Source: Euglena gracilis (Eukaryota). From it: DNA of 64,000 nt. Position 1 is the stretch's first letter, and every line of letters starts with the position of its first letter. Location of the stretch: assembly GCA_039621445.1 (NCBI GenBank), contig CP154954.1:44061847-44125846 (forward strand). Reading direction: 5' to 3'. Positions 1 to 37,011 of the stretch are shown piece after piece. Both the position numbers and the translations under genes were made by a program. Below the pieces are notes generated by a model that saw only the letters and a program-made list of their open reading frames with translations, was not told the DNA's origin and ran no database searches.

Positions 1-94
1 CCCAGATTTTCTTCTTATTCATACAGACAAAAGTGCTTCAGTGAGGACTGTTTCTGACCTCAATTTCCTTCATTTTGGGTGTTTTCATGCCGTC

Positions 95-105
95 TTTTTT
101 TTTAG
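95..105 (+). promoter_or_regulatory. Probable splice acceptor (possibly spliced-leader trans-splicing) upstream of the ATG
   Basis: A poly-T tract plus AG (ttttttttt-ag) lies 7 nt before ATG 113. Euglenozoans trans-splice an SL onto such sites. Confidence 0.45.
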
Positions 106-112
106 ACCTCTG

Positions 113-3100
113 ATGGCAGCCCGGAAGCCCTTGGCGCCCACCCGCTCGGCGACGGAGCTGGTGTCGAAGACCCCGACCCCGCTGGCCCGTGTCCGGAGGG
201 GGTCTGGCGCTGGCTTACATGATTGCCGTCTGTGGAGGCAGTCTTTTTTTTTTACCGTACAACCGTACAAGCGAGGGTGCTTGACGGTTTCTCATTCCTG
301 GGTTGTTTTGGAAAGTGCAGGGGAAGTCACTCCTTTTTGGACGACACTCACTGAGTTTGTTTCAGTGTCATTCACGTCCTTTGGTTTCTACAGCTGTGCG
401 GGTTTCTGTGCAAACCGCTGAGGGTTGTGTTTGGCATACGCGTGGACCAGACATCCTGTGGTCCTGTCTGTTCAGAAGTTTCAGCTGAAACCCTGGAGAG
501 CCAGACAGCCTCCGCGCCTCGACGTGCTGGTGCTGGACGAGACCCTCACGCGAGGGCAGGTGCGGCGGGTCGAAAAGGCCCATGTCGACTCCCTCGTCAA
601 GGCGTTCACGGAGAACCCGCCGGTGGGGGCCCTGAGCTTCGTGGTGTGGCCGGAGCAGGGTGTGTGTTTTTTGTTTGCGTGTCTGTGCCTATCAGCATGT
701 GGGCCAGTCTGTCTGTATCCATGAATGTTGCAAATGGCGGATGCTTCCCAAACGACTGAATAATGAAATGTACCCCGTTTGTAGTGTTTTTTTTTTGGAA
801 GGGGGGGATGGTGGGGATCCAGGCGGGAATCTGTGCACCTGAAAAAATCTCAATTGCACTGTTCTTCTCTGTTGTCACAGCGACGGGGAAGTTCGTCATC
901 CTGAGCGGGCAGCACCGCTTCCTGGCGGCCACCCAGGTGGCAGACGCGGCGGTGGCCGACACGCGGCCGGCGCCGCAGTGGACCGAGTGGTTCAACTGCC
1001 ACACGGTGCTGGGGTCGGCCAGCCTCGAGGAGAGGCAGCGCGTGGCCGGGAGCATGCAAGCCCGGGACGGGACGGTGAGGGAGATGTCCCTCAGCCAGCG
1101 GGTGGAGTGGCTGGAGCGGGAGGTGGAGCGGGAGCGGCCGGGGGCGGTGCCGGACGGTGAGGCGGGGACCGCCGCCCGCCTGATGGTGAACCGGACGGAG
1201 CTGCTGAAGCGGGTGTACGTGAAGACGGGGTGCACGGAGGCGTCCCACGGCAAGATGGTGTGTGCGCGGATTTCCGTGTGCGTCGTTTTCTATTTGATAC
1301 AATGCACGGATTCCCGCCGAGACGGCCTGCCTCCTTTCTTTTTTCTTTTCAGAAGGAGAGTGCGCGCACGCTGTCCTTTGAAATTCCAGCCATCACATAC
1401 ACATCACTCACTCCCCCCCCCTTAATTCCCCCCCCCCTCCCCTCTCCCTCACCCGCTCTGTGCAGGACAACTGGGTGAAGGCGATGCAGCCGCTGGCGGA
1501 GTGGCTGCTGCACAGCGGGCGGCCGGTGGTGGAGGCGGTGCGGGCGCTGGAGGCGCGCCCCGCGACGGGGGTGGCGGCGGCGCTGTCCCCGTACGCGTTC
1601 AAGGCGATCGAGCAGCTGTACGACCCGCAGGACTACGTCGCCCTGACGAGGGAGATGCTGGACGAGGCGGCGAAGGCGACAACGGTGCGGCTGGGTCGGA
1701 TGTCCATTTCACTGTGTCTGTTGGAACTCTGCCTGCACTTTCACACAGACAGACGCACACACGCGCACGCACGCAAGGAAAGTATGATCATACGTGGACA
1801 GTTGAACCAGTTTTACTGTTCGAGTGGATACAGAGACAGTACGCGGTAAACCGCACACTACACAATGCGCGGTCAGGTGGAATGGGACGGGGGAGGAATG
1901 GCACTCCGCTGTCAAGGCGGTGGTGGGGACGCTGATCCGCCGCCGCACGTGGACGTGGCTGCTGATGCACCCGGACCTTCACCACGTCCACCCGACCCGC
2001 CGTATGTCTACTCTGTGCTGTCTTCCGCACTCTGTGTGCACACGTTTTCTTAAGGTTGTCATTTTCAGGCGGGTTTCCGTACAAACACTCCTGCACATGG
2101 AAGCGTGTGTAGTGTTGGGATTCTTTGCTGATGTCCCCGTTCTCGTGCTCAGGTACCCTGTCCATGGTGCCCAGCCTGGAGCAGAGCATGGACAGCGCGG
2201 ATATCAAGGTGCCGCTCAGCGGTACCAACTGGCGCTGGTCGGCCCAGCACCCGTGCGCAGGGCTATCCAGGACGTGTGTGCCTTTTTCCCTTTGGTTAGT
2301 TGCATGCGTAACTGCGTTTCACACATGGTTGTTTTACGCGGGAACCCGCCTGATTGGATGAGACGAAATATCTCAATTCGCATTAGAATGTTACTGAGTC
2401 CAATTTTTTGTTTTTGTACTGGCTAATGATTCTACTGTACTGTCGGAGGTTCGGGGTTGTCCTGAGGACGGCCACCGCGGGGAGCGGTCCTTCGCTCCCC
2501 CCTGTGGGGGACTGAGCGCTACGCCCCCCTGCGGGCGCGCCTGGCCCAGCCGCTCGCCGAGCCCACGGTGCGGTACGGGGGGCGCTTCTGCACCGTGGAC
2601 CTCAGCGGTGGCGGCGGTCGGCGCGGGGCGGCCACAGCGGCGGCCGGCAGCAGCCGGGAGGAGGCGGAGGGGTCCCCCAGTCAGCCCACGTCTGGGGAGG
2701 GGGAGCTGTTTGAGGCTGGCTCTCCGCGGGCGGGCACCCGGTCCACCAGGGGGCGAAGAAAGACGGCAGCGGCGGAGGGTGGGGAGAGTCCCGAGCCGTC
2801 CCGCCTGGCGCACGTGGTCCCCCTCCACCCCACCGCGGCGATGCCGCGGGAGATCATGGAGCTGAACGTCGACGCGGTGGTGGTGGAGGTCCCGGACGGG
2901 CTGAGCGACGCCGACGTCCATCCCGAGCTCCTGAGACTGTGGAGCCATGGGGTGCCGTTCGTGGCCACGGGGCGGGCGTTCGCCATCGGGGTGCTGCAGC
3001 AGACGCTGCAGAAGGGCATGGACGTCCCCGACGAGATGCGCCGTGTGGACGTCACACTTCACCGGCCGGTGAAGTCCAACGTGGACCGCACGTACCTGTT

Positions 3101-5161
3101 CAACGTCACCACCGTGACCGCCCTCTTCAGCAGCAGGACGGACTTTCGGGTGTGTATATCCTCCCCTCCGCTTTTTTTTTTGAACCCTCCTTCTTTTGGC
3201 GTACACGGGAATCCGCACAAGTGTCACACAACTGTTACACTCTGGTGCATATTGGGGTACTGTGCGCACAAAAGGTTTCTTGAGACTCATGCTGTGACAT
3301 TCTAAGATGATGAGAGGGGATGGGATGAGGTGAGATACAACGTGATGAGACCATCTTCGCCTTCCACTCGCAGGTCCCCCGGCAGATCACCCTCGTGGGA
3401 CAGGGTCAGGGCTTTGTTCACACAGAACAGAAACACAACCAGGCGCTCTTTTTTTTTTTAAAAAAAAAAGAAAACATACCACGTGACCACTGATCATCAT
3501 TTCAGGGAATTGGCAGCATCCTGTGTGTCAACCAGGATGTCAGTCCGTTGTCTGTGGTTTTCCTCTGCACGGATATCCGCACACTTCTGCATTCTGTTCC
3601 CTATGGTGAAAGAATGGCATTCAGTCCCACAGTGTGAATTCCCTTCTGGCCCCCATCCCCCCTCCCATGAGAAACTGCGCAGAGACGCAGCTCTGCGGGG
3701 GAGGGGCCGCCCACCCTGCCGGTGGAGGTGGCGTGGTGGCTGCTGGCGCGGCTGCACGTGGAGGCCCACGACTGGGTGCTGGCGGTCACCCGCCACGCCG
3801 CCCTCCCGGCGGACCTCGCCACCCGGCTGCAGGTACCCATCGGCGTGATCTGGGGGGACCCCGACCTGCTGGAGGAGGCGGACGAGGCGATGCAGCTGCG
3901 GGTGGACCAGCTGCAGCGCGAGATCAAGGTGGCCGACGGGAAGCCGGCCATCCTGTGGGATCAGGGCGCCACCCCGGTCCAGGCCAGACGAGGGGGGGGG
4001 GGACGTTTGCCCTTATCAACTCTGCGTGCGTGGGTCATTATTGCAGCATCAGAACGTGGCGGACAACGTGTACGCGGTTTCCCGCACACATTGCACGCGT
4101 GCGGTTTCCCGTGGGGAGGGGTGCTTAGCTTCTGCCATCTGGTTTCCCCACCTGAACTTTCCTGGGTGTTGGCCCCTGCGGCCATCAACGTCCACCACCG
4201 CATCACCCACCACGAGCCACTGGACGTCTCCGGCCGGGGCGGGCTGGAGGAGGAGGAGAAGAAGGGGGAGAAGGAAGAGGAGGACATGCCCCCCCGGCCA
4301 AAGAAGAAGGAGCCGGAGAAGAAGGGCCGGGAGCCCTCACCCCCGCCGCCAGCCAAGGGGCGGGGCAAGAAGGAGACCCCCGCCAAGGAGAAGGAGAAGG
4401 AGAAGGAGAAGGCCCCTGCCGCCAAGGGGAAGGAGAAGGGGAAGGAGAGGGCCCCTGCCGCGAAGGAGGCCGAGGCGCCGGTGACGCCGGCCAAGCAGCC
4501 GTCAGCCGGCGGCGCGGCGGCGGCGGGCCGCAAGGGGGCCTCCACCCCCTCCGGGCTGCGGAAGGGCGCGGCTGCACCGCCAGCGGCGCAGGAGCCGCCG
4601 GCGCCGGAGACCCCGGTGACGGGCCGCAAGCGCACGGCCCGCACGCCGCCGCCGACCGAGTCCGCCGCCGGTGAGCCGGAGGACGAGATTGAGGAGATCG
4701 TGCCACGACCGCCCCCGACACTGTCCCCCCTTCAGAGCCAGCTGTTTGCATCCTCCCATTCTGCTCTTTCAGCCTCTGAGTTTACAGCCATACGTGGTGG
4801 GCTTTGCACACGGGAAACCGCACACGTGCGTATTCAGGGACACCGCACACGTACAGAATGATACGTGCGTTGCACGGAAACCCGCACACAATCTCCCACG
4901 CTGTTTTTTTGGATTCAGGTGGTTTTGCAGTCACACTGCCTGTGTCCTTGCAAACTCTTGAAAGAGCTGATACCCTCTCTTCGTTATTGCTGTTCTGCTT
5001 GCAAATTGCACGGGAAACCGCACACAGCTTGCTGACTCATTGCACGCACACACCCCTCCTTCCTGTAATACACCACTTACACACCAAGTCCAAGGGGGGA
5101 GGGTCAGCTGAAGAAGAAGCCCACGCCGGCCGGGGCGCTGGAGGAGCTGCTCAACGTGTGA
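113..5161 (+). CDS. Spliced gene: ParB/Srx-like N-terminal domain, degenerate beta-class N6/N4-methyltransferase-like region, Lys/Pro/Ala-rich C-terminal tail
   Basis: ATG at 113 follows a poly-T/AG acceptor. Exons are approximately 113-201, 451-659, 881-1257, 1466-1684, 1877-2001, 2153-2273, 2449-3149, 3374-3404, 3691-3976, 4184-4699 and about 5089-5161 (TGA), joined mostly by GT-AG introns. The spliced N-terminus reads QVRRVEKAHVDSLVKAF...LSFVVWPEQATGKFVILSGQHRFLAA, a ParB/Srx pattern. Later segments read NVDAVVVEVPD and PTLPVEVAWWLLARLHVEAHDWVLAV...IGVIWGDP. Several joins need a 1-nt correction in homopolymer runs. Confidence 0.7.
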
Positions 5162-6477
5162 GCAGGAGCGCGGGCCGGCGGGGGCGGGCCGGGCCGGGCG
5201 GCGGGGCGGCTGCGCCGCCATCCTCATCCCCGACAGCGCCCACGAGTGGGCACGGCCGTGGGCGGCCGCTGAGCAGTTCTCTGCCCCTCCTGCGTGGACC
5301 GCCTGATGCTTTTTGGAACCTGGGACCGCCCGTTGCTTTTTTTGTGTCACACACCCTCCTCACACCCACTGTCCCCGGGACTGCCCAACGCCTTTCACCT
5401 TTCGACGGGAACTCAACCCCTGGACCACACTCCATCACCCCTCTCACCTGGGACCCACCGGCCGGACGCCCCAACCGCCGTGCTAGGTCCAGGGCGCACA
5501 TTCTGTCTCCCATTCAGTGGCCGGTGTCGTGTCCAACTTTGCCTTTGCGGATGTATGTATGGAGTGTGAATCCCTCTCTGAAGCATACCCCTCCCTGAGA
5601 TCACGCCGTGTGTGCCCTGGACCTGGATCACCCATGCGGCTGTCCGTTTGCCCCCTCTGTTTCTCTTTTTCCTCTGGACCGACCACAGAGACTTCGTCTC
5701 TCTCTTCTTCCCCCCCGGACCAAGGACCCCTCCAGGACCAGGACCAAGCTGCACGGTGATCCGCACACACACCCTCCCCCTCTCTCCCTCCTTCTGCTGT
5801 CGTTGCGCTTCGTGTGCTACCGCAGTCCCTGGCAGGCGGGCGGTGAGGGGGGGATGGGAGGAGGGCTGCCTTGGGTGAGGTGCCTCACTGGATGTCAGGT
5901 CCAGTTCTCAGCCAAACATCCCCAGGAGTTTCCCGTATGTTTTTGCACGGATAACCGCACAAGTTCGCTTTTAACCAGCCATAGTCACTCAGCCCCCTCT
6001 CGTAGCGTTAGCCCCTCACATATGGTTCATCTGTTGTGTGCGGTTTCCCGCCTAACAGACCATCTGCTAAAAATTAGGACATCCGTTCAGCAGTGGTGTT
6101 CGTTTCCCCCTCCCGTCACTGGTTGTTGGCACTCACCAGTCCTCCAAAAACGCGCGGGTTGCTTACGCGGGTGCCTCTCCCTCACAGGTCACCCCATGTC
6201 ACCCCCCTCCCGGAGGTGGGGTCCGGCGTCGTCGTGACACGGCCGGGGCTCTGACGGCCAGGTGTTCTCCGACCCCTTCTCCGTTTTCACATTTTCGGCC
6301 AGGTTACTGGGGGGTATTTCACAAAACCACCCCTTTTCAACCATTAATTTCTAAAACGGGTCACGTGTCAAAACAGTGGAAACAGACGGAAACCCGCACA
6401 CAATTTCTGGGTTGTATCAAGTGTCAGGAATTTCGGTCACGTTTCAGGGGGGTGGCTTACACGGGAACCCGCGCACC
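395..6477. repeat. Dispersed palindromic motif, consensus about (T/C)RCACGG-N4-CCGCACA, about 19 copies in both orientations
   Basis: Copies lie near 395, 821, 1261, 1303, 1840, 2068, 2335, 3203, 3566, 4071, 4097, 4807, 4871, 5007, 5750, 5944, 6035, 6386 and 6458, essentially all in introns or the 3' flank. The copies at 395 and 821 have one mismatched arm. Confidence 0.85.
3977..4183 (+). other. Nonconventional/intermediate intron (GTC-CAG ... CTG-CGGCC)
   Basis: CAG is at +4..+6 and CTG at -8..-6, with complementary ends (CAGGCCA / TTGGCC..CTG) and no AG acceptor. It is 207 nt, so the frame is kept, and it contains two of the intron-type CGG-N4-CCG motifs. Confidence 0.55.
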
Positions 6478-6533
6478 TGCAACGCCTAAAAAATGACAAA
6501 AAATTTGGGCAATTCGCGCCGCCTAAGTCTGGG

Positions 6534-6811
6534 CAGGGGCTTTTTTTAGACCAGAGGGGAGGGGGGGTCCCCTCGGGAGCCCCACCCACCCACCCCCAGG
6601 GGGGCCCCCTCGGGGGGGGGGGGGGTCCCGGGGGATCCACTCAACTTTCCCTGAAAATGGCACTTCTTTTAAAAATAGCACTTTTAAAAATTTTCCGCGC
6701 CTTCGGTGCCAAAAAGTATAACCCACTCCCCCCTGGGTGGACCCTGGGGGGGGGGGGGGCTCGACCGGCTTCCCCCCCCGGGGGGGTCCAAGACTAAAAA
6801 AAAAACCCCTG
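6534..6811. mobile_element. hAT-like MITE
   Basis: TIRs are CAGGGGCTTTTTTTA / TAAAAAAAAAACCCCTG. Flanks AGTCTGGG / CCTCTGGG match at 6/8, a degenerate 8-bp TSD. An internal GCGCCTTCGGTGCC motif is present. Confidence 0.65.
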
Positions 6812-7244
6812 CCTCTGGGTCCTTGATTTGACAGCTGGACTCCCCCCCCGGCGCATCAGAGAAGGCCAAAAGAAGTGCCCCATCTGGCGTCAGAGGGCAA
6901 AAAGTTTCGAAGAAAAAATGATGCGTCGCGGACTTTTTCCGTACGTTTTTCATGATGACAAATCGGAGCAAATGTAAATGTGCTCGAGAAAATGGTCCAA
7001 AATGCCGCACATGGCTAAAACAAGGGGAAATGGTATCTTTTGAGTTTTGAGGGAATGAGATTTCCGACCAAATGTAGATCCCCCCCTGAGGGTCTTGAAG
7101 TTCTGCTGAATAAAATGGGGGGACATTATATTTGTGCTTTGGGATTTGGGGGGTAAATATATTTTTGTCCATCCATCAATGACAAACATGGATGGTGCCA
7201 ATTTTGTTCCACATTCTTTCCTAACTTGGCAATGGCACTTCACC

Positions 7245-7632
7245 CCTTAAACCCCCCCACTTTTAACCCCCCCCCACTTACTAACCCCCCCCCCCACTTA
7301 CTAACCCCCCCCTCAGGCCGACCAACCAAACCGGGACTTATAAACCCCCCTTCGGGGAAGAAAAATGAAAGCCGCCGGGGACGATTTTTTCGGCCGCAAA
7401 CCACCCAAAAACTAATTTTTGGCCCTTTTTTGAGATCGACCATCATCAAAAATGCCATTTTTGACCAAATTTGCAAAAAAAAATTGCCAATTTGGGAGGT
7501 TATCAGGGTCATTTTTGGGGTTCGGATTTTCACCAACAATTCCGGGACTTACAACCCCCCCCCCACTTATAAACCCCCCCCTTCGGCCGACCAACCAAAC
7601 CGGATCCTACTAACCCCGGGGGGTTTATAAGT
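7245..7632 (+). mobile_element. Dispersed repeat family A (Helentron/HINE-like), copy 1
   Basis: Has the internal direct repeat CCGACCAACCAAACCGG, the core ACCATCATCAAAAATGCCATTTTTGACCAAATTTGC and a terminal palindrome AACCCC-GGGGTT. These are shared with copies at 11300, 14281, 24340 and 61793. Confidence 0.7.
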
Positions 7633-7678: not shown

Positions 7679-9491
7679 GGGTGGTCATTCACGGGAGGTG
7701 GGGCGACCGTTGGTAGGGTCGCGGCAGGCCGCGGCCGACCGCGGCCCTACCAAAAAAATTTTTAGGTAGGGCCGCGGCATGCCGCAGCCCCACCCAAAAA
7801 TATTTTTGGAAGGGCCGCGGCCTGCCGCGGCCCCACCAAGCACCACCCAGCACAAAAGAATTTGGTGGGGTTGCGGCCGACCGCGGCCGGCCGCGACCCA
7901 ACCTAAGGCAACGTTTTGGTAGGGTCGCGGCCGACCGCAGTCGACCGCGGTCGGCCGTGACCCTACCTTGAAAAAAAAAATGGTTGGGCCACGGTTGACC
8001 GTGGCCGACCGCGACCCAACCTCCCGTGACCCTGAGGTCGTGGGTTCGATACCCACCTCGCATTCGAGAATGAACCTCGGGTTCCATACAAGCCTTTTTT
8101 AAGGGTCGGCTTTTGTTGTCAAAAACCACCATGTGGAATTTGGTCGTATCAGGGGGCGAATCACTTGTGTTACCAACTCCAAGGGGGGGCTGTGAGGGGG
8201 TGTTGGGCGTCTGGGGCGTGATAAATTGGCCCCTACAAGGTACCAGCTACCCCAAAGAGCCGCCCAACTAGGGTTAATACACATGGGGGGACCCTCGCTC
8301 GGCGCCTTCGGCGCCTCGCTCGGATCCCCCCACGTTTTTAACCTAGTTGGGCGGCTCTTTGGGTTCGCTGGTACCTTGTAGAGACCAATATAACAACGTT
8401 GAGCGGGAAATGTTCTGCTGTTTGGATGAGAATCGCAACCCTAACCCTACTCCTTCAAATAACCTCGTGAATTCTTTTTGGCCACAGTGAAACGCCATCA
8501 GGAAATCCTTTGCCAGTAATAAAAAAAAATAAAAAAAGGAAAAAACAAAAATAAAATAAAATAAAAAATAAAAAATAAAAAAAACGGTCACGTGAAATCA
8601 CGTGAAGTGGGGGGGGTATGGGGGGGGGGGCAGGTGGGTGGGGGGGTGTGGGTGGGGGTGGGGGAGGGTGGCGCGGGTGTGGGGGGGTTAGGGCGTGATA
8701 AATTGGCCCCTACAAGGTACCAGCTACCCCAAAGAGCCGCCCAACTAGGGTTAAAAACATGGGGGGACCCTCGCTCGGGTCCCCCCATGTGTATTAACCC
8801 TTGTTGGGCGGCTCTTTGGGTTCGCTGGGCACCTTGTAGAGACCAATCTAACAACGTTGAGCGGGAAATGTTCTGCTGTTTGGATAAGAATCGTAACCCT
8901 AACCCTACTCCTTCAAATAACCTCATGAATTCTTTTTGGCCACAGTGAAACGCCATCAGGAAATCCTTTTGACAATAATAATGGCAGGGGTGGAATCCAT
9001 TCTGCAGGAGGCGAAGGGTTTCCTGTGGGGATCTTTCGTCCCTAAAAGAGTATGGAGAGGAATTTACTTTTTAAATGCATATTTTTCATTGTACTGTTAT
9101 TTACAAGTACGCCATGGTTTTGGTATTATGTAGAGCCAATTACCAACTGCCACGGAGAGCGTATCACCGTGGGTATCAGAATAGCAGAAGGCGCAGGGAA
9201 CGAAGGTTGGATCGGTGGCTCGCAGAACAGTGTTCGGACAGTCATGGGAGGTGGGGTCGCGGTCGGCCGCGGCCGGCCGCGGCCGACCGCGACCCCACCA
9301 AAAAAAATTTTTGGTAGGGCCACGGCCGGCCGCGGCCCTACCAATTCAAAATTCTGAGAGCCAAAATTGGCTGTGGTGGGGTCGCGGTCGGCCGCGGCCC
9401 TACCAAAATCCTGTTTTGGTAGGTTGACGGCCGGCCGCGGCCGGCCGCGGCACCCACCTCCCACGAACCCACCTCCCGTGACATCCCACCC
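7679..9491. mobile_element. Mutator(MULE)-like non-autonomous element with a 9-bp TSD
   Basis: GGCAATTAC is perfectly duplicated at 7670-7678 and 9492-9500. The imperfect TIRs are GGGTGGTCATTCACGGGAGGTGGG / rc GGGTGGGATGTCACGGGAGGTGGG. GC-rich GCGGCCGACC subterminal repeats occur at both ends. Confidence 0.75.
8212..8970. repeat. Tandem duplication of a ~300-bp unit, each copy containing a ~150-170-bp hairpin
   Basis: Units at about 8212-8511 and 8690-8970 both run GGGCGTGATAAATTGGCCCCTACAAGG...CAGGAAATCCTTT with long self-complementary arms. A diverged reverse copy lies at about 45203-45810. Confidence 0.85.
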
Positions 9492-11299: not shown

Positions 11300-11425
11300 G
11301 GAGCCCGTTTGGGGGATTTGGGGGGGTCATTTTGGGGGGTCGGACTTGGACCAACAATTTGTTGACTTATCCCCCCCTTCGGCTGACCAACCAAACCTGG
11401 TCCTATAAAGCCAGGGGTTTACAGG
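11300..11425 (+). mobile_element. Repeat family A, partial copy (3' end)
   Basis: CTTCGGCTGACCAACCAAACCTGGTCCTATAAAGCCAGGGGTTTACA matches the 3' end of copy 1. Confidence 0.6.
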
Positions 11426-14500: not shown

Positions 14501-17500
14501 GCTTTGCGGCCGAAGAAAAATCGTCCCCGGCAGTTTCCATTTTTCTTCCCCAGGGGGGGGGGGGTTATAGATCCGGTTTGTTGTTGCCCGAGACCGAGAA
14601 AAGGGGGGGGTTATAAGTAGGGGGTGTGTTTTTGGGTTAGGGGGGGGGGTTATAGTGGGGTGGCGGGTTTTATGGGGGATTTTTAAATGGGGGGGGGGGT
14701 ATAAGTGGGGGGTGGGGTTCACAATATTGATAACAACCCACTAAAAAAAATTTGGTTTTTAAGTTTTTAACCTCCGCATTTTGCAACAAAGCCGAAGGTT
14801 GACCTTAAAACACAGAAACAGTGGGCATCCCACCAAAGTTAAGGGGTGTCTGAAACAAAAAAACCGGCCTCATTCAAACTGCCCAAAAGGTTGCCGAAAA
14901 CTGGGAACTCGGGAACATGGGGAGAAGGTTCGGGTCGCCCCAAAATTGGTTCAGAAAGCACGGTTTCTGGGGGGGGGGGGCAACGAGGTGACTAAAATCT
15001 CAAGGTGGGTGTGAAGGATTCCATTTGAAATTCCAATGGCAAAAAAGGACAAAATCGGACAAATTCCCAACAAATTTTCGGGGAGGAGTCCATATCAGTG
15101 AGCAGGTCTGTTCTGAAAACAAAGAAGCAAAACCATTCTCGTGTGTTGAACATAATGAACACAGCAAACCTTGGGAAGGCAACAGACCGTCCTCAAAACT
15201 ACTCAGCCATACATACCCTCCAAATAATGAGCAGTAGAGAGAGCAGAGTGCCCATTTGTTGGGACCATCCTTTTCCCTCTCAAACACCAAACTTTTTCCT
15301 CGGACGTCATTGAACCCAACTTTTTTGGACCGCCCAGTTCTTCGAGCGCTGCAAGGGACAAGGGCTGTGGGGGAGGTTAGTATGTCTGATGCACATATAT
15401 CAAATTCTGTAAAGCTTGTGGAAGCACTTTCAGAATTCGACTCCATGTCCCCAAAAAAAATATCTACAACCTTCCATCTGGGCAGGACTGAGACTGACTG
15501 AGATCCAGCAGTATTCCTTCCACTCTGTGGTTGCTGCAGTGCCAAGCAACCAAGTTGCCTGCCCAGAATTCCACACGTGTTCGTCACACTGGCACCGGCC
15601 TCGGCAGAGGTGGCCACACCGGAGGCCTTCGGGTTGGGGGAGCGGTAGACGCGGCGGACCCGGAAGCGGGTGCCCGGCGGGGCGAGGAACTCCTGCTCCG
15701 TCGGGAAGTCGGAGTAACGGGAGATGAGCTTGTAGGACTTCATCTTGGTGATGAGGATGCTGCCGGCCCCAGGGCGACCCCCCCCCCATCAGGCACTGGC
15801 TCTGTGCCTGCCCACGGCTGGAAGTGGTTTCCCAAAAATGACTGACTGCTTTCCCTGTGACCCCCCCCCCTCGAGGTCGGTGAGCAATCGCATGGGGGGG
15901 GGACCCCCCCGCCAATGACCACAGGTTCCAAAAGAAATCGCCTTTGTTTCCGTCGTTGACCGCAAGTTTGCCCGACACACACGACACCCCCCTCCCTCCC
16001 ACTCCCAGGTTGTTCAAAAGAAGCCTGCATGGGGGGGGGGGGGGGTCCGGCCTGTGGGTAAGTCCCGGTCCCACAAGAGGCCCTTGGCCAGTGGCAAAGA
16101 AGTAAATTGAAACAGCAGAGGAATGATATGATTGCATACAGTGAGTCTTGATTGTCTTGGAGTTTGCAAAAACATAACGGACAGGATGCCTACCCGGGCC
16201 GCCTCTCCTTGGACGCCGTGCAGGCCACCCATTCATCGAGGTCGAGGGTACAAACACATGAGTTTGATTTAGACGTATGGGAGAACGCAGAAAGACAAGC
16301 ACTGAAATGAGAGAAAATGAATTATGCAACCCCCTTCCTTGCAGAAGAGATGCACTTCATTCTCATGCTCCCTGAGCAATTTTGTGCTCCCAAACCGGGA
16401 GTGGTCTTTGACTTGGGGTGGCGGTGAACCCTCCAAAACACACCCCAGCTCTATTGTTTGGGTAAGTCCAATCAGGGTCTTATTTAAACGTATTGCCAGA
16501 AAAAATTGGGCAAAAAAGCCTTCCCTCGAGATGCACAAAAAAATAGGTCCAAGAAGCAGGAATTTCAACAACAAACAAAAATTGTTTAAAAAATGCCAAA
16601 TCCTATCTCATGGAAAGAAAGATAAAAAATGGGGGAAAATAGGGGGGAAAATCAAAAAATGACCCATTTCGGGCACTCACACTACCTTGGTGGGTCTGTT
16701 TTTGGGGGTTCTTCTACAAAAAAACCTCGAGAGGGTTTCCTTTGGGTCTCTTTGGAAGAGGAAACGACAGGGGTTGGGGGCTTGGTTTTGGATTCCAGTC
16801 CGACCCACGTCGCTTTAGGAACCAAGGGGGTGCTCTGGCAGCACTACACCCCACGGGAGTCGAAAGCGCCCTCCCCTGCCTGTCCAAAGCACAGAGAGCA
16901 GACCCTTGGGGAGGGGGGGGCTGCCCTCCACGTGTCTCCCTGGCCCCCGACCGTCGCTGAAGGAGGGGCCCCCCTGGCCCTCGTACCCGAAGGAGTGGGC
17001 GATGTACGCCGACAGGGAGGTGGAGGTGAAGTTCTCCAGCGAGATGGGCTCCCCCTCAACGTACTTGCTGCCCGCCCCCCACTGCCGGAGGGGTTCAGTC
17101 CCATCAAAGGCGGTGGATGGGTGGGGGGTGGGTTTGGATCAGGCTTTTGCAGAAAGACTCGGAGCGATTTGGCCAGCCACCAGAAAAGGGTCAATTAACT
17201 CTGAGCCAGACCACCCAGCTCACCAGACACTCCTCCCTGCGGTCCCGGGAGTCCCCCCAGGAGGTGGAAAAAAATTACACCTCGGTTCTGGGCATTGTTG
17301 GCACGTGTATGGAAAAAAAAATACCGACGTTTCGCGTCTGTCACCGGAAAAAAAAATACACTTGCTGACCCTATCAAATTTCCACTTGCCAAATTTGGAC
17401 TAGCTGCAGTCCAGCCCCCCCCCACCCCCGGGTGCTTCGCACAGAAGAGGGCACAGCATAGACTATATAGGATCATCTTTACATACATATCATATACAGA

Positions 17501-17501
17501 G

Positions 17502-17552
<51 letters not shown>

Positions 17553-17867
17553 CATATACATATACACATATACATATAATACATATACATACATACATAA
17601 TACAATACATATACATACATATACAATACATACTACATACATATACATATGCAGACATACATACATTACAATACATACAGACATACAACATACATACATA
17701 CATACATACATACATACATACATACATACATACATACATACAGACATACATACATACAGACATACAGACATACAGACTACATACATTACATACATACATA
17801 CATACATACATGCATACACACATACATACACACATACATACATACATACATACATACATACATGCAT

Positions 17868-17925
<58 letters not shown>

Positions 17926-18891
17926 CATCAGACACACACACACACACACACACATACATACATACATACACACATACATACATACATACATACATACATA
18001 CATACATACATACATACATACATACATACATACATACATACATACATACATACATACATACATACAGACATACATACATACATACATACATACATACATA
18101 CATACATACATACATACATACATACACACACACATACAAACACACACACACCATACATACATACATACATACATACATACATACATACATACATACATAC
18201 ATACATACATACATACATACATACATACATACATACATACATACATACATACATACATACATACATACATACATACATACATACATACATACATACATAC
18301 ATACATACATACATACATACATACATACATACATACATGCATGCATGCATGCATGCATGCATGCATGCATGCATGCATGCATGCATGCATGCATGCATGC
18401 ATACATACATACATACATACATACATACAGACATACATACATACATACATACATACATACATACATACATACATACATACATACATACATACATACATAC
18501 AGACATACATACATACATACATACATACAGACATACATACATACATACATACATACATACATACATACATACATACATACATACATACATACATACATAC
18601 ATACATACATACATACACACACACATACATACATACATACATACAATACATACATACATACAGACATACATACATACATACATACATACATACATACATA
18701 CATACATACATACATACATACATACATACATACATACATACATACATACATACATACATACATACATACATACATACATACATACATACATACATACATA
18801 CATACATACATACATACATACATACATACATACATACATACATACATACATACATACATACATACATACATACATACATACATACATACAT

Positions 18892-18973
<82 letters not shown>

Positions 18974-19876
18974 CATCAGACACACACACACACATACACA
19001 CGCACACACATACATACATACATACATACATACATACATACATACATACATACATACATACATACATACATACATACATACATACATACATACATACTTA
19101 CTTACATATATATATACATACATACATACCTACATACATACACATACATACATACATACATACATACATACATACATACATACATACATACATACATACA
19201 TACATACATACATACATACATACATACATACATACATACATACATACATACATACATACATACATACATAATACATACATACATACATACATACATACAT
19301 ACATACATACATACATACATACATACATACATACATACATACATACATACATACATACATACATACATACATACATACATACATACATACATACATACAT
19401 ACATACATACACATACATACATACATACATACATACATACATACATACATACATACATACATACACATATATACACATATATACATACATACATACATAC
19501 ATACATACATACATACATACATACATACATACATACATACATACATACACACACATACATACATACATACATACATACATACATACATACATACATACAT
19601 ACATACATACATACATACATACATACATACATACATACATACATACATACATACATACATACATACATACATACATACATACATACATACATACATACAT
19701 ACATACATACATACATACATACATACATACATACATACATACATACATACATACATACATACATACATACATACATACATACATACATACATACATACAT
19801 ACATACAGACAGACAGACATACATACATACATACATACAGACAGACAGACAGACAGACAGAGACAGACAGACAGAC

Positions 19877-19935
<59 letters not shown>

Positions 19936-22450
19936 TACATACATACATACATACATACAAACATACATACATACATACATACATACATACATACATACAT
20001 ACATACATACATACATACATACATACATGCATGCATACATACATGGATGCATGCATATGGCAAGTGTTAAGTTTGGTACCCCCCCCTTAAATGTTAAATT
20101 TAGTACCCCAGGTTGGCCACGGGGGTGTACCCTGGGGTTAGTGCAGGGCGTAGGGTTTGGGCCGGTTGGCCTGAGGTCGACCGCGCGCGCGCGACGCCTC
20201 CCTGGCCCGGGCCGCGCGATTCCCAAAGGCGGCAGACAGGCAGAGGGAAAGAAAGATAAAGCCTGCCGAATGGTTGCCCCTACAAGAGACTTCACCCTCC
20301 CTTTGCCTTTGGAGTGACTCTCAAAGGGGCTGGGGTTGGCAGGACGGGCAGTCAAGCCGGCAGTTAGGCCGCATGCTCAGGGCAAGGTGCACGTCGTGCG
20401 CATGCGGCCGACCTCAGGCCAACCGGTCCAAACCCTAACCCAACACCCTGCAGTAACCCCAAGGGACGCACCCGTGGCCAACCTGGGTCAAGTTTAGTAC
20501 CCCCTAGGGGGGGGGGGGGTATGGTGCAGCTGACGTTTTTTATTTCAGTGCTTGGAACTCTTGGTTTCACACCATCGTAACACTATTCAGCAGGAATTCT
20601 GACTTGCATTAAACATATATTTTACTTGTTAAATCCATTACACACATATGGCAAGCTTTAAGTTCAGTGCCATTGATGGACCTAACTTGGGCAGCTATTC
20701 TTGACATCAAATTTTTGCCATTTTGCAGATTTTTGGTCACTTTTGCTTTCATTTTGACCAGTGTTTACATAAATCTTTGCAAGTGTGACACAAATTTGGC
20801 CGATTTCGACAAAAAAAACTGGCTATTTTTGACAAAAAAAAAACGTGTCTGAGGGTGACAACGTTGGTGGTTCAACTGTGAATAGGTGACTGCCCGTGAA
20901 ACCTGCAATCGTTCACACCAACAAGTCCTTCAGAATCTGCTGAAATTGAGGTGAAACCGTGGTTCCCACTTGACCGAAATGACCTCGCCATTGTCCCGAT
21001 TAAAGACCTTTGCCCTGCAGCCAGGGGCTCGAAGTCCACACTGGGCCCGACGCCGCGGAACGACGCGGCCTGGATGTTGGTGGAGAAGTTGGCGAAGGGC
21101 GGGTCCAGGCTTCTTTTTGGCAACCCCGGGGGAGGGGGTACACTTTGGGTGACTGGCCAGGGAAGCAGGGCTGGTCACAAAAAGAAGAGGCTGTGATGGG
21201 GTGGACAGCCCACTCAAAGGGCGGGCTGCAACACGAACTCTCGAAAAACGCCACACAAAATAAACTAAGATAAAAAAAGCAAATAAACACAAAAAAAAAT
21301 GCAAAAAAAAGTTGCATGTAAAATCCTTCGGGATGTACGCTTTCTACTGGAGAGGACTTTAGCCACCTCCGCCAGGGATAACTCTTCATTTTACATAAAA
21401 TATGCTGTTTGTTGACCAAAAAATGCAAAAATGACAAAGAATGAGAAAAAAAAAATAAAATTTGGTCTCAGGGGGAAATTGGGGCTAAAATGAAAGGTTT
21501 TTCAAAATCAAAAAAAATCCAGCAAAAATTGAAAAATTGCCAAAAGGTGCAAAAAAAAAAATCAAAAAAAGCAACAAAAAAAACGCGATTGCATTCCCCC
21601 CCTGCTCAGCAGAAACTTCAGATCACCAATCATTTGCTTTTTAGGCGCAGGCCAGTACAATGGTCCCTTCAAATTTATCGTTTTTGCAACCTCACTCAAA
21701 ATTGTGAATGACTGGGCTGTTCAACCAAGTTTTGCTTTGTTTCGTGTTGTGTGTTGAGCTCTACAAATGATTGCCAACTTTCATCTTTCGATGAGAATAT
21801 TGCATACACCAAATACTTGGGCCAATTGCACAAAAAAAAAACTATAATTGTTTAACCTGACGCTCAAAACTATGGTGTGGTGGTTCGATGGCCAGGAACC
21901 TGAGAAAGGAGTTAGGACTTCCACAATTTGGATGCTCTAAAGCAGGTGTCCCCACGGCATAAGGGACACACCTGCCCAGCACGTGTGCTTGGGACCCTTC
22001 CAACGGCTGCCCCATCAACATCAAATGTTGCGGGAATGGATGGAAGGGATGGCGGGCGGGGGGGGATGTGCTGCAACGCAAAAAAAGTGCAAGTTGCACA
22101 TGAATTCTTTAGGAGCTCCCAGATGTGCATAGCTTCCTGCTAGAAAGGACTTTGGAAAATTTTCATCTCCTCCCATCCAGGGAGAATTTTCAGAATGCAA
22201 ACCTAGCACCTCCCCCCCCCCCCGGGACGTTGCTGTGGCTGGGTTGGCCAAAATTGGGGCTGGCCTGCAAACGGACGCGTGGGTGCGACCTTCCGAAGAA
22301 AAGCAGCCCAGGCGGGTCCACGAAACACGTGCCGGGCAGCTTGTTCAGCGCCACCATGAGCTGCTCGCTGAAGGGGCGCCAATTGGCAATCTCCGCGGCG
22401 TCGCGGGTGTAGAACGCCGCGTTCATCTTCTGGTAGATGGGTGTCTGCAG
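11576..22450 (-). CDS. R-S-E clade (ARTC / NAD:arginine-type) ADP-ribosyltransferase domain, split over about 7 exons
   Basis: In transcript order the exons read [19 protein letters not shown]...[16 protein letters not shown] (~22335-22450), SFRGV (R at 21055-21057), ENFTSTSLS (~17016-17024), [23 protein letters not shown] (EQE at 15690-15698) and [11 protein letters not shown] (last exon). Confidence 0.85.
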
Positions 22451-25400: not shown

Positions 25401-28400
25401 CCACCCCCTGGACATGTGGGGGTTTTGGATTGCCTCCCCAGGCAGGCCCCCTCCCATCAGGCCACCAGGGGAGTGCCTTGTGCAAAGGGGTGCTTGCGCA
25501 CCCCCCCCCCCAGGTGGGTCGGTTCTGGACCCCGGTGCATGCCAACCAAGCCACCTTTCCCTTGAAAAGGCCATTTTCGGGCTCTGGCGCCGAAGGCCTT
25601 TGGCGCCGGGGGGGGGGGGGGTGCGACAGCACTGCCACCCCAAAACCTGACCCCCCACGACACCCTGGCACCTCCCCCCTCCAAGGAGGGGGGTGCAAAC
25701 TTCCTTAAAAGGAAGCCTGCCCCCCCCAGTCAAGTTCAGCCTGGTCGTCATAAAGAAGAGGTCCGCGATGTGTGAGAAGCCACAAAAGCACTGGCCCATC
25801 GGCTTCAGCCCACTGGACGGTCGCTTGCAGCACGTGGGCCCTTCCAGCCAGTGCGCCCGCATCTGCCGGAACCGCTTCAGCTGCGGGCTTGGCAGTGGCC
25901 GGAAGGCTTGGGGTTCCCCAAGCCACACCCTCACCCCTCCCCACCCCTTCAGCTTTGATCAAAAGCATTGTGCCAGCGAAGTGTCAGGGTCACGCAATTT
26001 TTTTCCTGGGAGTGGTCATTTACATTTTCCAGAAACCAGTCAGTCACTTTTTTGGAAAACCAGTCGGTCCCTCCAACACCCACCCCCCAAGGAGGGGTCG
26101 GTCAGGTCACAGATGAGAAGAAAATATCTGAGAGGCACTGCCGAGGACGGTCCAGCTCAAAGTCGTGCAGCTTGGAGTCGCGGAACTCCTTCACCACATC
26201 CTTGAAGCCCGCCAGCTCCGCGAAGAAGTGGGCCGACCAGGGCAACCATCGCCCCCGGGGCCGCGGGGCTGGCCAATTTTTATTTGCAATTATTGGCATT
26301 GTTTTTTGCCAATGGCTAATAAAACACTGCGACGCCAACCTCTTCGGCAGGGAACACGGGGATCTCGACCACACGTGGTCTCCCACATGGCTAGATTCCG
26401 GAATTCAAATGACGTGCTGACACAAGCACCCCAAACTCTGAAGCTTCCAGGCGGTGCACAGTGCGCCGGCCCCAAGAAAGCACCACATGCGCTTCTGGCC
26501 CCTCCTTGGGTTCCCTCTTTTGTCAGTTCTTCCAGGGGGGGGAGGAGGCGCCGCCACCCCAGCCGGAAGTCCGGCAGCACGTCTATCATGGCGGGGAGGG
26601 CCGGGTCCTTGGCCTGCACCGCCTCCTGCAGCTGGTAGAGGGAGAGTGGGGTGATCTCCGGCAGCCTCTGGAAGTGGCGCCAGGGACCAGCAGGCGGCAT
26701 TTGACCGACCCCACCAACCCCGAAGCTTGGATTTTGCCAGAACGTTGACCAGCATTGAAGCATCGAAGCAGAACATTGACAAACACATTGAAAGGACGGG
26801 GATTATTGGCAAAACAGGGGGGGCAGAGGAAATGGGGAATGGGTGTGAGCTCCACCCCCCAAAGAAGAAGTTGCGGCAGCCCAAAACTGCTGGGACCCCA
26901 TGGGGGGTCCCAGTGGATTGACGGGGGTTATTTATGGAGTAGGGTTGGGGTTTCAATTTAGGCCCATATTTCATCCGATTTTCATTTGGCCTAAATTAGG
27001 CCTAAATTCAGGTCTCAGTTTTGTCAATTTAGGCACTGATTTTGCGAAAATTGAGGCCTAAAAGGCTAAATTGTAACCCTAACCCTCCTCCATGAATAAC
27101 CCCCCGTTATACTGTTGTGCTAATGGGACCCCCTCCTGGGGGGTCCAGTAGTATTGCTGCCGAAGTTACATCGACCAGCAGCCACCATGCCAAACGTTCA
27201 GCGATGGGATCATGTGCAATGGAAGGTGAACAGCTATGTTCTCCTTCTGCCTGCCTTGGTTGACTCATCCGCTTTGGGGTCAATTCGGAAGAACCATATT
27301 TTTAACATCCTCCTTGCACAATCACATTGAAAATTTTCCACTTGGCGCTGAAATTAAAAGCAAATTTTAATGGCTGTGAAGAGGCCAAAAAAAAATACAT
27401 TTTTGAACATCAATGGTGCAAATGTATCCATTTTCAAATTGCTGAATTCATCACCCACACTTTGAGCCGGGGGGAGGAGAACTCCTGGCAGAAGATGGCA
27501 CCTGTGGTTTGAGTTTGGTCTCCTTACATCACCCTTCTCCAGACCACACCACAGTTGTGAAAGCAGGGGGAAAGCAACGGCATTCGGTGAGGAGGGAGGG
27601 CAACCGCCGGAGCATTGGGGGGAAGTGAAGCGACACTACGATGGTCCCTGGTCCGGGAAAGACATCCGGAAAGCGTGCCTTCAGCACTTCTTCGAAGCCA
27701 TGCTCCGAAAGGACCCGAAGGGGAACTCTCCTTCAGATGGTGCGTGGCAAAAAAATGCCTTACGGAAGAAACCGGAAACCTCAAAAGCTCAAAAAAAAAC
27801 CGAAGCAGCGTGGGGAAAAGAAGGAGGAAAACTGTTAAACTTATCTTGACGAGGATCTTGATGATCCTGATGTCTCTCACCTGGGGACGTCATAACAACT
27901 AAAGTTTGCTTCTGACCAGGGAGGGGGTTCCCCAAGTCGGCAAAAATTGGACATAGGATGGATGGATGGATGGATGGATGGATGGATGGATGGATGGATG
28001 GATGGATGGATGGATGGATGGATGGATGGATGGATGGATGGATGGATGGATGGATGGATGGATGGATGGATGGATGGATGGATGTGTGTATGCATGTATG
28101 TATGTATGTACGTACGTATGTATGTATGTTATGTATGTATGTATGTATGTATGTATGTATGTATGTATGTATGTATGTATGTAGGTATGTATGTATGTAT
28201 GTATGTATGTATGTATGTATGTATGTATGTATGTATGTATGTATGTATGTATGTATGTATGTATGTATGTATGTATGTATGTATGTATGTATGTATGTAT
28301 GTATGTATGTATGTATGTATGTATGTATGTATGTATGTAGGTATGTATGTATGTATGTATGTATGTATGTATGTATGTATGTATGTATGTATGTATGTAG

Positions 28401-30661
28401 GTATGTATGTATGTATGTATGTATGTATGTATGTATGTATGTATGTATGTATGTATGTATGTATGTATGTATGTATGTATGTATGTATGTATGTATGTAT
28501 GTATGTATGTATGTATGTAGGTATGTATGTATGTATGTATGTATGTATGTATGTATGTATGTATGTATGTATGTATGTATGTATGTATGTATGTATGTAT
28601 GTATGTATGTATGTATGTATGTATGTATGTATGTATGTATGTATGTATGTATGTATGTATGTATGTATGTATGTATGTATGTATGTATGTATGTATGTAT
28701 GTATGTATGTATGTATGTATGTATGTATGTATGTATGTATGTATGTATGATGTATGTATGTATGTATGTATGTATGTATGTATGTATGTATGTATGTATG
28801 TATGTATGTATGTATTTATGTATGTATGTATGTATGTATGTATGTATGTATGTATGCATGTATGTATGTATGTATGTATGTATGTATGTATGTATGTATG
28901 TATGTATGTATGTATGTATGTATGTATGTATGTATGTATGTATGTATGTATGTATGTATGTATGTATGTATGTATGTATGTATGTATGTATGTATGTATG
29001 TATGTATGTATGTATGTATGTATGTATGTATGTATGTATGTAGTATGTATGTAGGTATGTATGTATGTATGTATGTATGTATGTATGTATGTATGTATGT
29101 ATGTATGTATGTATGTATGTATGTATGTATGTATGTATGTATGTATGTATGTATGTATGTATGTATGTATGTATGTAGGTATGTATGTATGTATGTATGT
29201 ATGTATGTATGTATGTATGTATGTATGTATGTATGTATGTATGTATGTAGGTATGTATGTATGTATGTATGTATGTATGTATGTATGTATGTATGTATGT
29301 ATGTATGTATGTATGTATGTATGTATGTATGTATGTATGTATGTATGTATGTATGTATGTATGTATGTATGTATGTATGTATGTATGTATGTATGTATGC
29401 ATGGATGGATGGATGTATGTATGGATGGATGTATGTATGTATGTATGTATGTATGTATGGATGTATGTATGGATATGGTAGTATGTATGTATGTAGGTAG
29501 GTAGGTATATATATATATGTAGGTGTATGTATGTATGTATGTATGTATGTATGTATGTATGTATGTATGTATGTATGTATGTATGTATGTATGTATGTAT
29601 GTATGTATGTATGTATGTATGTATGTATGTATGTATGTATGTATGTATGTATGTATGTATGGTATGTATGTATGTATGTATGTGTATGTATGTATGTATG
29701 TATGTATGTATGTATGTATGTATGTATGTATGTATGTATGTATGTATGTATGTATGTATGTATGTATGTATGTATGTATGTATGTATGTATGTATGTATG
29801 TATGTATGTATGTATGTATGTATGTATGTATGTATGTATGTATGTATGTATGTATGTATGTATGTATGTATGTATGTATGTATGTATGTATGTATGTATG
29901 TATGTATGTATGTATGTATGTATGTATGTATGTATGTATGTATGTATGTATGTATGTATGTATGTATGTATGTATGTATGTATGTATGTATGTATGTATG
30001 TATGTATGTATGTATGTATGTATGTATGTATGTATGTATGTATGTATGTATGTATGTATGTATGTATGTATGTATGTATGTATGTATGTATGTATGTATG
30101 TATGTATGTATGTATGTATGTATGTATTTATGTATGTATGTATGTATGTATGTATGTAGTATGTATGTATGTATGTATGTATGTATGTATGTATGTATGT
30201 ATGTATGTATGCATGTATGCATGTATGTATGTATGTATGTATGTATGTATGTATGTATGTATGTATGTATGTATGTATGTATGTATGTATGTATGTATGT
30301 ATGTATGTATGTATGTATGTATGTATGTATGTATGTATGTATGTATGTATGTATGTATGTATGTATGTATGTATGTATGTATGTGTATGTATGTATGTAT
30401 GTATGTATGTATGTATGTATGTATGTATGTATGTATGTATGTATGTATGTATGTATGTATGTATGTATGTATGTATGTATGTATGTATGTATGTATGTAT
30501 GTATGTATGTATGTATGTATGTATGTATGTATGTATGTATGTATGTATGTATGTATGTATGTATGTATGTATGTATGTATGTATGTATGTATGTATGTAT
30601 GTATGTATGTATGTATGTATGTATGTATGTATGTATGTATGTATGTATGTATGTATGTATG

Positions 30662-30692
<31 letters not shown>

Positions 30693-31412
30693 TGTATGTA
30701 TGTAGGTATGTATGTATGTATGTATGTATGTATGTATGTATGTATGTATGTATGCATGAATGCATGCGTGCATGCACGCATGTATGGATACATGAATGCA
30801 TGGATGTATGTATGTATGTATGTATGGATGGATGGATGGATGGATGTATGTATGTATGTATGTATGTATGTATGTATGTATGTATGTATGTATGTATGTA
30901 TGTATGTATGTATGTATGTATGTATGTATGTATGTATGTATGTATGTATGTATGTATGTATGTATGTATGTATGCATGCATGTATGTATGTATGTATGTA
31001 TGTATGTATGTATGTATGTATGTATGTATGTATGTATGTATGTATGTATGTATGTATGTATGTATGTATGTATGTATGTATGTACGTATGTATGTACGTA
31101 CGTACGTATGTATGTATGTATGTATGTATGTATGTATGTATGTATGTATGTATGTATGTATGTATGTATGTATGTATGTATGTATGTATGTATGTATGTA
31201 TGTATGTATGTATGTATGTATGTATGTATGTATGTATGTATGTATGTATGTATGTATGTATGTATGTATGTATGTATGTATGATGTATGTATGGATGTAT
31301 GTATGTATGTATGTATGTATGTATGTATGTATGTATGTATGTATGTATGTATGTATGTATGTATGTATGTATGTATGTATGTATGTATGTAGTATGTATG
31401 TATGTATGTATG

Positions 31413-31443
<31 letters not shown>

Positions 31444-33676: not shown

Positions 33677-33708
<32 letters not shown>

Positions 33709-33758
33709 TGTATGTATGTATGTATGTATGTATGTATGTATGTATGTATGTATGTATG

Positions 33759-33789
<31 letters not shown>

Positions 33790-33938: not shown

Positions 33939-33970
<32 letters not shown>

Positions 33971-36699: not shown

Positions 36700-36730
<31 letters not shown>

Positions 36731-36980: not shown

Positions 36981-37011
<31 letters not shown>

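Follow-up and report, generated by a model that had tools for sequence, protein, structure and literature searches.

Giant transposons of red, brown and green algae have lately been recognized as carriers of ParB-like accessory proteins. In red algae, Plavaka (EnSpm/CACTA) giant transposons carry an accessory gene, PAG3, whose product combines a weak ParB-like N-terminus (HHpred E = 0.29) with an oxygenase domain; the gene adjoins inverted-repeat arrays, and binding of the protein to its own transposon has been proposed by the authors (Petroll et al. 2025, 10.1101/2025.02.11.637652). In Ectocarpus, the element Sola1-1_Ec32 bears an accessory gene encoding a ParB-methyltransferase, described as a possible new class of proteins which bind and modify their own transposon (Genome Biol 2025, PMC12477816), and a family joining ParB and helix-turn-helix (HTH) domains to Dam is reported from chlorophytes and chytrids (Iyer et al. 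2015, PMC4738411). The arrangement presented here is not new as an idea, since, as far as the consulted parts of these sources go, it was proposed in 2025 for ParB-like accessory proteins of red and brown algae. It was found within a stretch of 64,000 nucleotides of the Euglena gracilis genome (contig CP154954.1, positions 44,061,847 to 44,125,846, forward strand; the whole stretch is referred to as the window), where about 19 copies of a short, imperfectly palindromic motif are clustered within and downstream of a multi-exon gene encoding a probable ParB/Srx-type domain.

Other described systems share single features with this locus. The 12-mers of En/Spm TnpA and the hexamers of Ac are subterminal motifs, confined to a few hundred bp at the transposon ends. 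The VANDAL anti-silencing protein is encoded by the element and binds a short motif repeated within it. REP elements of prokaryotes are short imperfect palindromes, with strand-specific G.T pairing, which are located around a RAYT gene and depend on a Y1 transposase.

The motif and its distribution

The core of the motif, CGG-N4-CCG, occurs 52 times in the window, versus 9.9 +/- 2.7 times in 100 shuffled sequences, and 24 of the 52 matches fall between positions 1267 and 6471. Spacers with at least two A or T residues are found in 17 of these 24, versus three such matches in the remaining 57.5 kb. When the sites are brought to a common orientation, one asymmetric pseudo-dyad of 18-20 bp is obtained, TGCACGG-RAAW-CCGCACA(C). 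A search for TGCACGG-N4-CCGCACA, allowing up to two mismatches, returned 12 matches, five of them exact, all located within 395-6475, against an expectation of 0.72.

A weight matrix, 22 nt wide and trained on 14 of the sites themselves, attains a score of at least 20 at 14 places of 1-6500, whereas the best score over the other 57.5 kb is 17.3; in block shuffles the mean number of such places is 0.007. A k-mer test, independent of the matrix, found CCGCACAC ten times in 1-6500 versus once in 43.5 kb of the rest. Altogether, about 19 sites, 14 strong and five degenerate, lie between 393 and 6477, and the matrix scan detected none elsewhere in the window. Fourteen of them run along the gene and five are inverted. 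Their flanks are unrelated: since no similarity extends past about 20 nt, the sites are not copies of a longer repeat.

These results were compared with a first-pass annotation of the same DNA, which had reported some 19 CGG-N4-CCG-type sites, clustered at the gene in both orientations and stopping at about 6480. Both the count and the end point, at 6477, agree with the present ones. The further remark, that no clustering of the motif was noticed elsewhere, holds for the full motif and fails for the bare CGG-N4-CCG, which forms a second cluster of 16 matches at 7722-9447; these correspond to two GC-rich arrays, made of a different repeat. The dyad which had been given as ideal, TGTGCGG-N4-CCGCACA, has no match with fewer than two mismatches and was replaced by the asymmetric form.

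The motif was also looked for among viral contigs, the sole case being a contig of 68% GC (L141), in which a 19-mer containing the motif core is present at 5646-5667 and 7527-7548. A related array was rejected in favor of coincidence, because only two copies occur, in a GC-rich contig with no relative of the gene. A literature search found no publication on the site type, queried as CGG-N4-CCG, CGGN4CCG or CGGNNNNCCG, nor on a defined recognition motif.

At least one site is present in each of the 10 introns inferred for the gene (P = 0.015 for 14 sites thrown at random on the introns), five are located in the 3' flank, and the exons of the approximate gene model are free of all 19. The placement originally proposed, in most introns and the 3' flank, is thereby extended to all introns. 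A lone half-site is also visible in the last intron, near 4838-4850. A site in every intron illustrates how cis-elements can be fitted into a gene without touching the protein.

In the alignment of relatives of the encoded protein, the places of introns 4 and 6 are read straight through, and these introns are therefore taken as lineage-specific. The place of intron 7, after exon 7, is common to relatives, and two relatives have an insertion at the place of intron 5; the relatives sharing these places are only 22-32% identical. As sites are found in old and young introns alike, they did not arrive with the introns. Introner elements were excluded: beyond the 20-nt motif the introns have nothing in common, introns 5 and 7 occupy old places, and the motif is also present in the 3' flank. 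The peptide HGFPS, which back-translates to CAYGGNTTYCCN, occurs in the intron read-through of two relatives (P0016 and P0018); about 40 chance matches of a 5-mer are expected, and the peptide was not used as evidence.

The two arms differ consistently. In the outward direction, starting at the core, one arm has the sequence CCGCACA and its partner CCGYGYA; four sites carry an arm CCGCCTRA or CCGCCGAG instead, and two arms of CCGCACA type are never found in one site. In motif orientation, A predominates in most of the spacers (GAAA, AAAC, GAAT and similar). The initial description, of conserved arms around a free spacer as in the site of a dimeric protein, did not survive this comparison, as arms and spacer are both asymmetric and the spacer is oriented. 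This asymmetry counts against a simple symmetric dimer site and keeps a hairpin model, discussed below, alive.

Table. Features of the locus and of the adjoining sequence. Positions refer to the window; for motif sites, + indicates the motif orientation along the gene and scores are weight-matrix scores.
Feature	Position	Strand	Remarks
Multi-exon gene, about 11 exons and 10 GT-AG introns	113..5161	+	open frames, third-position GC content (GC3), splice pairs
Approximate exons 1-6	113-190, 476-659, 881-1257, 1466-1684, 1896-2001, 2153-2275	+
Approximate exons 7-11	2485-3149, 3374-3404, 3672-4004, 4119-~4700, 5108-5161	+
Probable ParB/Srx-superfamily N-terminal domain, DGQHR type	476..1000	+	split by intron 2 (660-880); weak, motif-level
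Middle domain, unnamed family (exon 7)	2485..3149	+	relatives, AlphaFold model
Lys/Glu/Pro/Ala-rich low-complexity tail	4196..4690	+	partly from 39-nt tandem repeat
Motif site, intron 1	393..414	-	18.7; CCG degenerate (CTG)
Degenerate motif site, intron 2	818..839	+	11.2
Motif site, 5' end of intron 3	1261..1282	-	27.0
Variant site, intron 3	1301..1322	-	10.8; arm CCGCCGAG
Motif site, intron 4	1838..1859	+	27.1
Variant site, intron 5	2064..2085	+	14.2; arm CCGCCTGA
Variant site, intron 6	2333..2354	+	13.1; arm CCGCCTGA
Motif site, intron 7	3200..3221	+	27.7
Motif site, intron 8	3564..3585	+	26.7
Motif site, intron 9	4069..4090	+	24.1; spacer TTTC
Motif site, intron 9	4096..4117	-	23.8
Motif site, last intron	4805..4826	+	30.0
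Motif site, last intron	4869..4890	+	29.9
Motif site, last intron	5005..5026	+	30.7
Motif site, 3' flank	5748..5769	+	25.8
Motif site, 3' flank	5942..5963	+	26.4
Motif site, 3' flank	6035..6056	-	27.3; second arm CCGCCTAA
Motif site, 3' flank	6381..6402	+	25.1
Last motif site, 3' flank	6456..6477	+	26.2; about 10 nt before repeat boundary
Probable right-hand boundary of the gene-carrying repeat family	6487..6488		loose ends at 6488
GC-rich hairpin-unit array, about 5 units (GGTAGGGyCGCGG...CCGCGrCCCTACC)	7690..8030		CCGCGG every 10 bp
Second array, about 4 of the same GC-rich units, inverted relative to the first	9243..9465		inverted pairs I1-I7

The repeat family, the gene and its product

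Short contigs matching positions 1-7000 were found in two DNA runs (1,774 and 15,721 contigs), mostly 90-99% alike and with the introns included. The introns are covered at lower depth than the exons; as they are covered at all, the copies of the family are DNA copies containing introns. In one run (X2), contigs identical to the window have a depth of 33-46, and the summed depth in gene bins ranges from 4,545 to 25,395, which is not a copy number and is read only as many diverged copies. The locus belongs to a multi-copy DNA family, which is probably mobile. The first-pass annotation had suggested a mobile element or an endogenised replicon: the former gains support from the multi-copy contigs, while nothing speaks for the latter. 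Self-comparison revealed no second copy of 1-7000 within the window.

Sites are also found in other copies of the family. Contigs with 93-99% identity span those starting at 393, 2333, 3200, 3564 and 5005, and at base 407 all three covering contigs (runs X1 and X2) read C, which restores the CCG lost from the intron 1 site of this copy. In addition, contigs of both runs contain a joint between 2086 and 4869, with eight letters in between, so that the site at 2064 is followed 8 nt later by a second, inverted one; the number of sites therefore varies between copies.

On the right-hand side, four contigs of run X1 match the window from 6488 onward and are unlike the sequence upstream, and contig depth rises two- to three-fold at 6085-6552. 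The gene-carrying family probably ends near 6487, about 10 nt past the last site. A different, very abundant repeat with long runs of G and C follows at 6553-6786 (summed depth in X2 of 206,755, about 10 times that of the gene bins), and related pieces are present at 7286-7348, 7555-7617 and 11351-11413.

The gene model was derived from exon frames with GC3 of 0.87-0.99, which alternate with introns of about 50% GC, and by enumerating frame-keeping GT/AG pairs; the exon 6/7 and 10/11 junctions, for which no pair keeps the frame, were placed manually, with some uncertainty for the last junctions. Exon 1 has no stop in its frame as far back as base 2, and a polypyrimidine tract followed by AG, before base 105, forms a 3' splice-like site near 104. 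For these reasons translation possibly does not begin at the ATG at 113, and the gene may have more exons beyond the left edge of the window. Two runs gave only 51 and 59 RNA reads; in the latter run (X24) the reads cover exon bins, with none in bins that are purely intronic, and 57 of them are less than 99% alike. They show that members of the family, rather than this copy itself, are transcribed and spliced. No other clear gene was recognized in the 64 kb, and the GC3 of this one contrasts with surroundings of about 52% GC.

The ParB-like nature of the product was evaluated by several approaches. Language-model neighbors, which are leads rather than proof, were found for exon 3 at 0.90-0.93 (recognition 2697), in clusters with ParB_N (19% of members) and DUF6551 (90%), and for exon 2 only at 0.77-0.80, in DUF6551, DndB and ParB_N clusters. 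Home-made profiles were then used, built on 36 chromosomal ParB proteins, taken from bacterial loci located through the parS consensus, and on 13 DndB proteins; the corresponding Pfam families are ParB_N (PF02195) and DndB (PF14072). Against the ParB profile, exons 2 and 3 joined as in the spliced product obtained 2.8 bits, a score attained by 9 of 1000 shuffled sequences; against the DndB profile they obtained 3.5 bits, attained by 1 of 1000. In both cases the aligned stretch is the box spelled GERR in ParB and DGQHR in DndB, and SGQHRFLAA in exon 3 of this gene. A G-x-x-R-x-x-A box is present at the place expected for a ParB/Srx domain, as a motif-level match only. These data suggest that the N-terminal domain is probably of ParB/Srx type, in its DGQHR version. 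The earlier label of a ParB-like gene finds weak support in this signal, and none in the single-exon queries of Pfam, NCBIfam and PDB sequences reported below. A tblastn search of exon 3 against phages gave no match, and word-index protein searches with the same exon, at the 'longer' and 'near' lengths, recovered no relatives.

For the middle domain, encoded by exon 7, a search of 1.84 billion representatives returned 38 relatives at E <= 0.001, with a best E of 1.2e-17 and identities over the matched stretches mostly of 25-42%. The 20 of them which were looked up are all unnamed exon-level open reading frames (ORFs), from metagenomes or run assemblies, and a Pfam scan of 10 found no family above the cut-off. 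A word-index search with the relatives' profile (A1) recovered only P0016 and P0036; single queries with exon 7 and P0016 found no match among metagenome contigs, nor did exon 7 among viral contigs. In the AlphaFold model (predicted local distance difference test score of 71), residues 114-226 resemble Alba/IF3-C or a partial methyltransferase fold, not decisively (Z <=7.5, Foldseek E >=0.01). The resemblance to MT-A70/N6 methyltransferases is a weak one, of fold only (E of about 0.01-0.09, Z of 4-5): the alignment of relatives lacks a DPPY/W-type motif at the corresponding place, and no N6/N4 methyltransferase family was matched in Pfam or NCBIfam by the exon ORFs.

In the rest of the window, 6500-64000, no Pfam family above the cut-off was found in 26 long or GC3-rich ORFs, and no ParA, transposase, recombinase or viral gene was detected in the window. 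Scans of the window with Rfam and for tRNAs gave no match; a tRNA-like box, GGTTCGATACCCAC, is seen near 8040, where ARAGORN calls no tRNA. The two GC-rich arrays are located 2.5-4.3 kb downstream of the gene; their units are parted by A/T palindromes, and together they enclose a segment of 1.2 kb, much as in a foldback element. Between them, 8183-8511 and 8660-8969 are direct copies of a unit of about 300 nt, 87-96% alike across the detected repeats, each with its own inverted repeat (D3, D5, I6, I13). Microsatellites are represented by (TACA)n at 17480-20044 (2.6 kb) and (ATGT)n at 27958-38110 (10.2 kb), which are reverse complements and bracket about 8 kb, and by a (TG)n array of 0.8 kb at 55902-56730.

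Possible roles of the sites

We tentatively read the sites as a cis-acting array of putative protein-binding sites of a mobile element, plausibly serving its own ParB-like protein. The element would carry a multi-exon gene for a protein that begins with a probable ParB/Srx-type (DGQHR) domain, has an alpha/beta domain of an unnamed family in the middle and ends in a disordered, basic tail, and the 19 or so pseudo-dyads would fill all the stretches free of coding constraint, that is the introns, without exception, and the 3' flank as far as the boundary (1.3 kb). Among possible binders, a protein of the element itself would be the likeliest, foremost the ParB-like product. A protein bound about every 300 bp could cover the whole copy, and could attract or keep away activities that act on chromatin or modify DNA, or assist the transposition machinery in locating the copies. 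This reading is based on the site cluster itself (14 strong and five weak sites in 6.1 kb), with all introns occupied and exons site-free; on sites present in old and young introns alike, with unrelated flanks, and kept in other copies; and on the multi-copy family, the weak ParB/DGQHR signal obtained by four approaches and the published algal precedent.

Several observations weigh against it. The consistent asymmetry of arms and spacer is not predicted by a symmetric dimer site. The matrix statistics are partly circular, the training sites being those scored. Compatible places for the motif in the introns of distant relatives, evaluated by back-translation, are seven versus 3.4 +/- 2.2, which is not significant (P = 0.087). 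No terminal repeats, target duplication or transposase were seen in the window, the left end being outside it. As to the protein, no single-exon ORF gave a match in Pfam (E <= 1) or NCBIfam (E <= 10), and PDB sequence searches with exons 2 and 3 returned nothing relevant; all these queries were single exons, not spliced, of a putative domain which is split by intron 2. Membership in ParB is weakly supported, by a motif match of about 15-30 residues and 3 bits. No HTH was detected after the N-terminal domain, the corresponding stretch of the ParB profile scoring -2.1 bits, and the canonical GERR box reads GQHR, which makes binding of cytidine triphosphate (CTP) doubtful.

The sites could be bound by another protein, either a transposase of the gene-carrying element or a host transcription factor, the ParB-like gene being cargo or a regulated gene. 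An asymmetric motif of 18 bp would suit a monomeric multi-domain protein, or a heteromeric one, as well as ParB, and inverted CGG triplets are a known site type of zinc-cluster factors. Five sites are moreover located in the last 740 bp before the boundary, where contig depth rises, as at transposon ends shared with deletion derivatives. The sites, however, span the whole 6 kb and are not restricted to the vicinity of one end; the 26 further ORFs scanned with Pfam include neither a transposase nor a zinc-cluster gene; and the motif is found nowhere outside the locus, which rules out a widespread regulatory site of the host within these 57 kb. We regard a different binder as rather unlikely. 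Should it be the correct solution, the locus would still offer a clean homotypic site cluster, tied to one repeat family.

A more specific version of the tentative reading is a parS-like system, in which the ParB-like protein would load at about 20 asymmetric dyads, placed by evolution throughout the introns and the tail of its own gene, spread and mark the copy in chromatin; on this view the strand-specific G.T pattern would indicate that the sites are read as extruded hairpins or cruciforms. We consider this unlikely. If true, such marking would serve protection from silencing, DNA modification, partition or tethering, and would constitute a discrimination between self and host, by a transposon, of a kind not known from eukaryotes. 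A complete ParABS partition system was discarded, given the lack of ParA among the 26 further ORFs of the window and the negative score of the HTH region.

Alternatively, the sites could act on single-stranded DNA or RNA as strand-specific hairpins, for example within an antisense transcript or an intermediate of replication or transposition, rather than as duplex sites. Wherever the arms are mismatched, one strand shows C.A/A.C and the other G.T/T.G, so that hairpins with G.T/G.U pairs may form on the strand opposite the motif. These are 7-8 bp long, with energies of -8 to -10 kcal/mol at 9 of the 19 sites and of -6 kcal/mol or lower at 13, compared with about -3 to -7 on the motif strand, and the left-arm variants TGCACGG, TACACGG and TACGCGG all keep the pairing. 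The last hairpin, about 10 nt from the family boundary, recalls rolling-circle elements, which have a hairpin near the terminus. A check for a Helitron-type 3' hairpin, which would call for a Rep/helicase gene and one hairpin ahead of a CTRR end, found many hairpins, in both orientations, the last one about 10 nt before 6487/6488, and no Rep/helicase gene in the window. Since sites point both ways (14:5), the hairpins are not all on one strand, and the sense pre-mRNA could fold at only five sites; on the folding strand, the loops do not belong to the tetraloops known to be stable, and the transitions which produce the asymmetry are equally expected from CpG decay of an ancestor CGCGG-N4-CCGCG. 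A hairpin function thus appears quite improbable.

That same decay is central to the view, to which we give little credence, that the motif is functionless, a CpG-rich palindrome which arose or inserted repeatedly in the family ancestor and is seen often through amplification of the unit: most half-sites are one or two transitions from CCGCGCA/CCGCGCG, as decay in CpG-depleted non-coding DNA (observed/expected 0.60 overall and 0.60-0.69 around the sites) would give, and copies inherit whatever their founder carried, but the 19 independent placements, with unrelated flanks and in old and young introns, need a source, all introns are occupied, CpG observed/expected inside the sites is 1.25-1.34 (partly by construction), and the CCG lost in this copy is intact in the others seen.

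Comparison with described systems

The En/Spm, Ac and VANDAL motifs resemble the present one in being short, placed inside an element and found in both orientations; here, by contrast, the sites span at least 6 kb and include every intron. With REP elements and their RAYT genes the locus shares short imperfect palindromes, a strand-specific G.T pairing and clustering at a gene, and differs from them in that no Y1 transposase gene is found here.

Bacterial and plasmid ParB-parS systems are similar in having clustered, near-palindromic sites at or within the parB gene; in bacterial loci found with the 16-bp parS consensus, up to six sites lie within 830 bp (L019). The spacing of about 300 bp would suit nucleation and spreading. 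On the other side, no ParA was found here, GQHR replaces GERR, no HTH was detected, and the sites are asymmetric and located in the introns of a spliced eukaryotic gene.

Closer similarities exist with the algal systems. Sola1-1_Ec32 and the ParB-HTH + Dam family have in common with this locus a eukaryotic protein, probably tied to a transposon here, which has a ParB-like domain and would bind and modify its own element; they differ in the methyltransferase, as no N6/N4 family is matched by the gene described here, and no binding motif is reported in the consulted parts of those sources. PAG3, compared by description only, is likewise an accessory-type gene on a high-copy element, with a very weak N-terminal ParB match and inverted repeats at the gene. 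Its repeats are tandem and lie beside the gene, whereas single sites of 18-20 bp are distributed here across introns and 3' flank. The putative 2-oxoglutarate (2OG) oxygenase domain of PAG3 is not seen here, where the model of the middle domain is alpha/beta, and the PAG3 ORFs derive from intron-less consensus sequences, while this gene has about 10 introns. To these systems the locus adds a concrete candidate recognition sequence, an 18-mer which recurs about 19 times and varies naturally in its arms, its spacer and its orientation. As the 18-mer adjoins a gene whose product may read it, in a family of many copies, the idea of self-recognition becomes testable.

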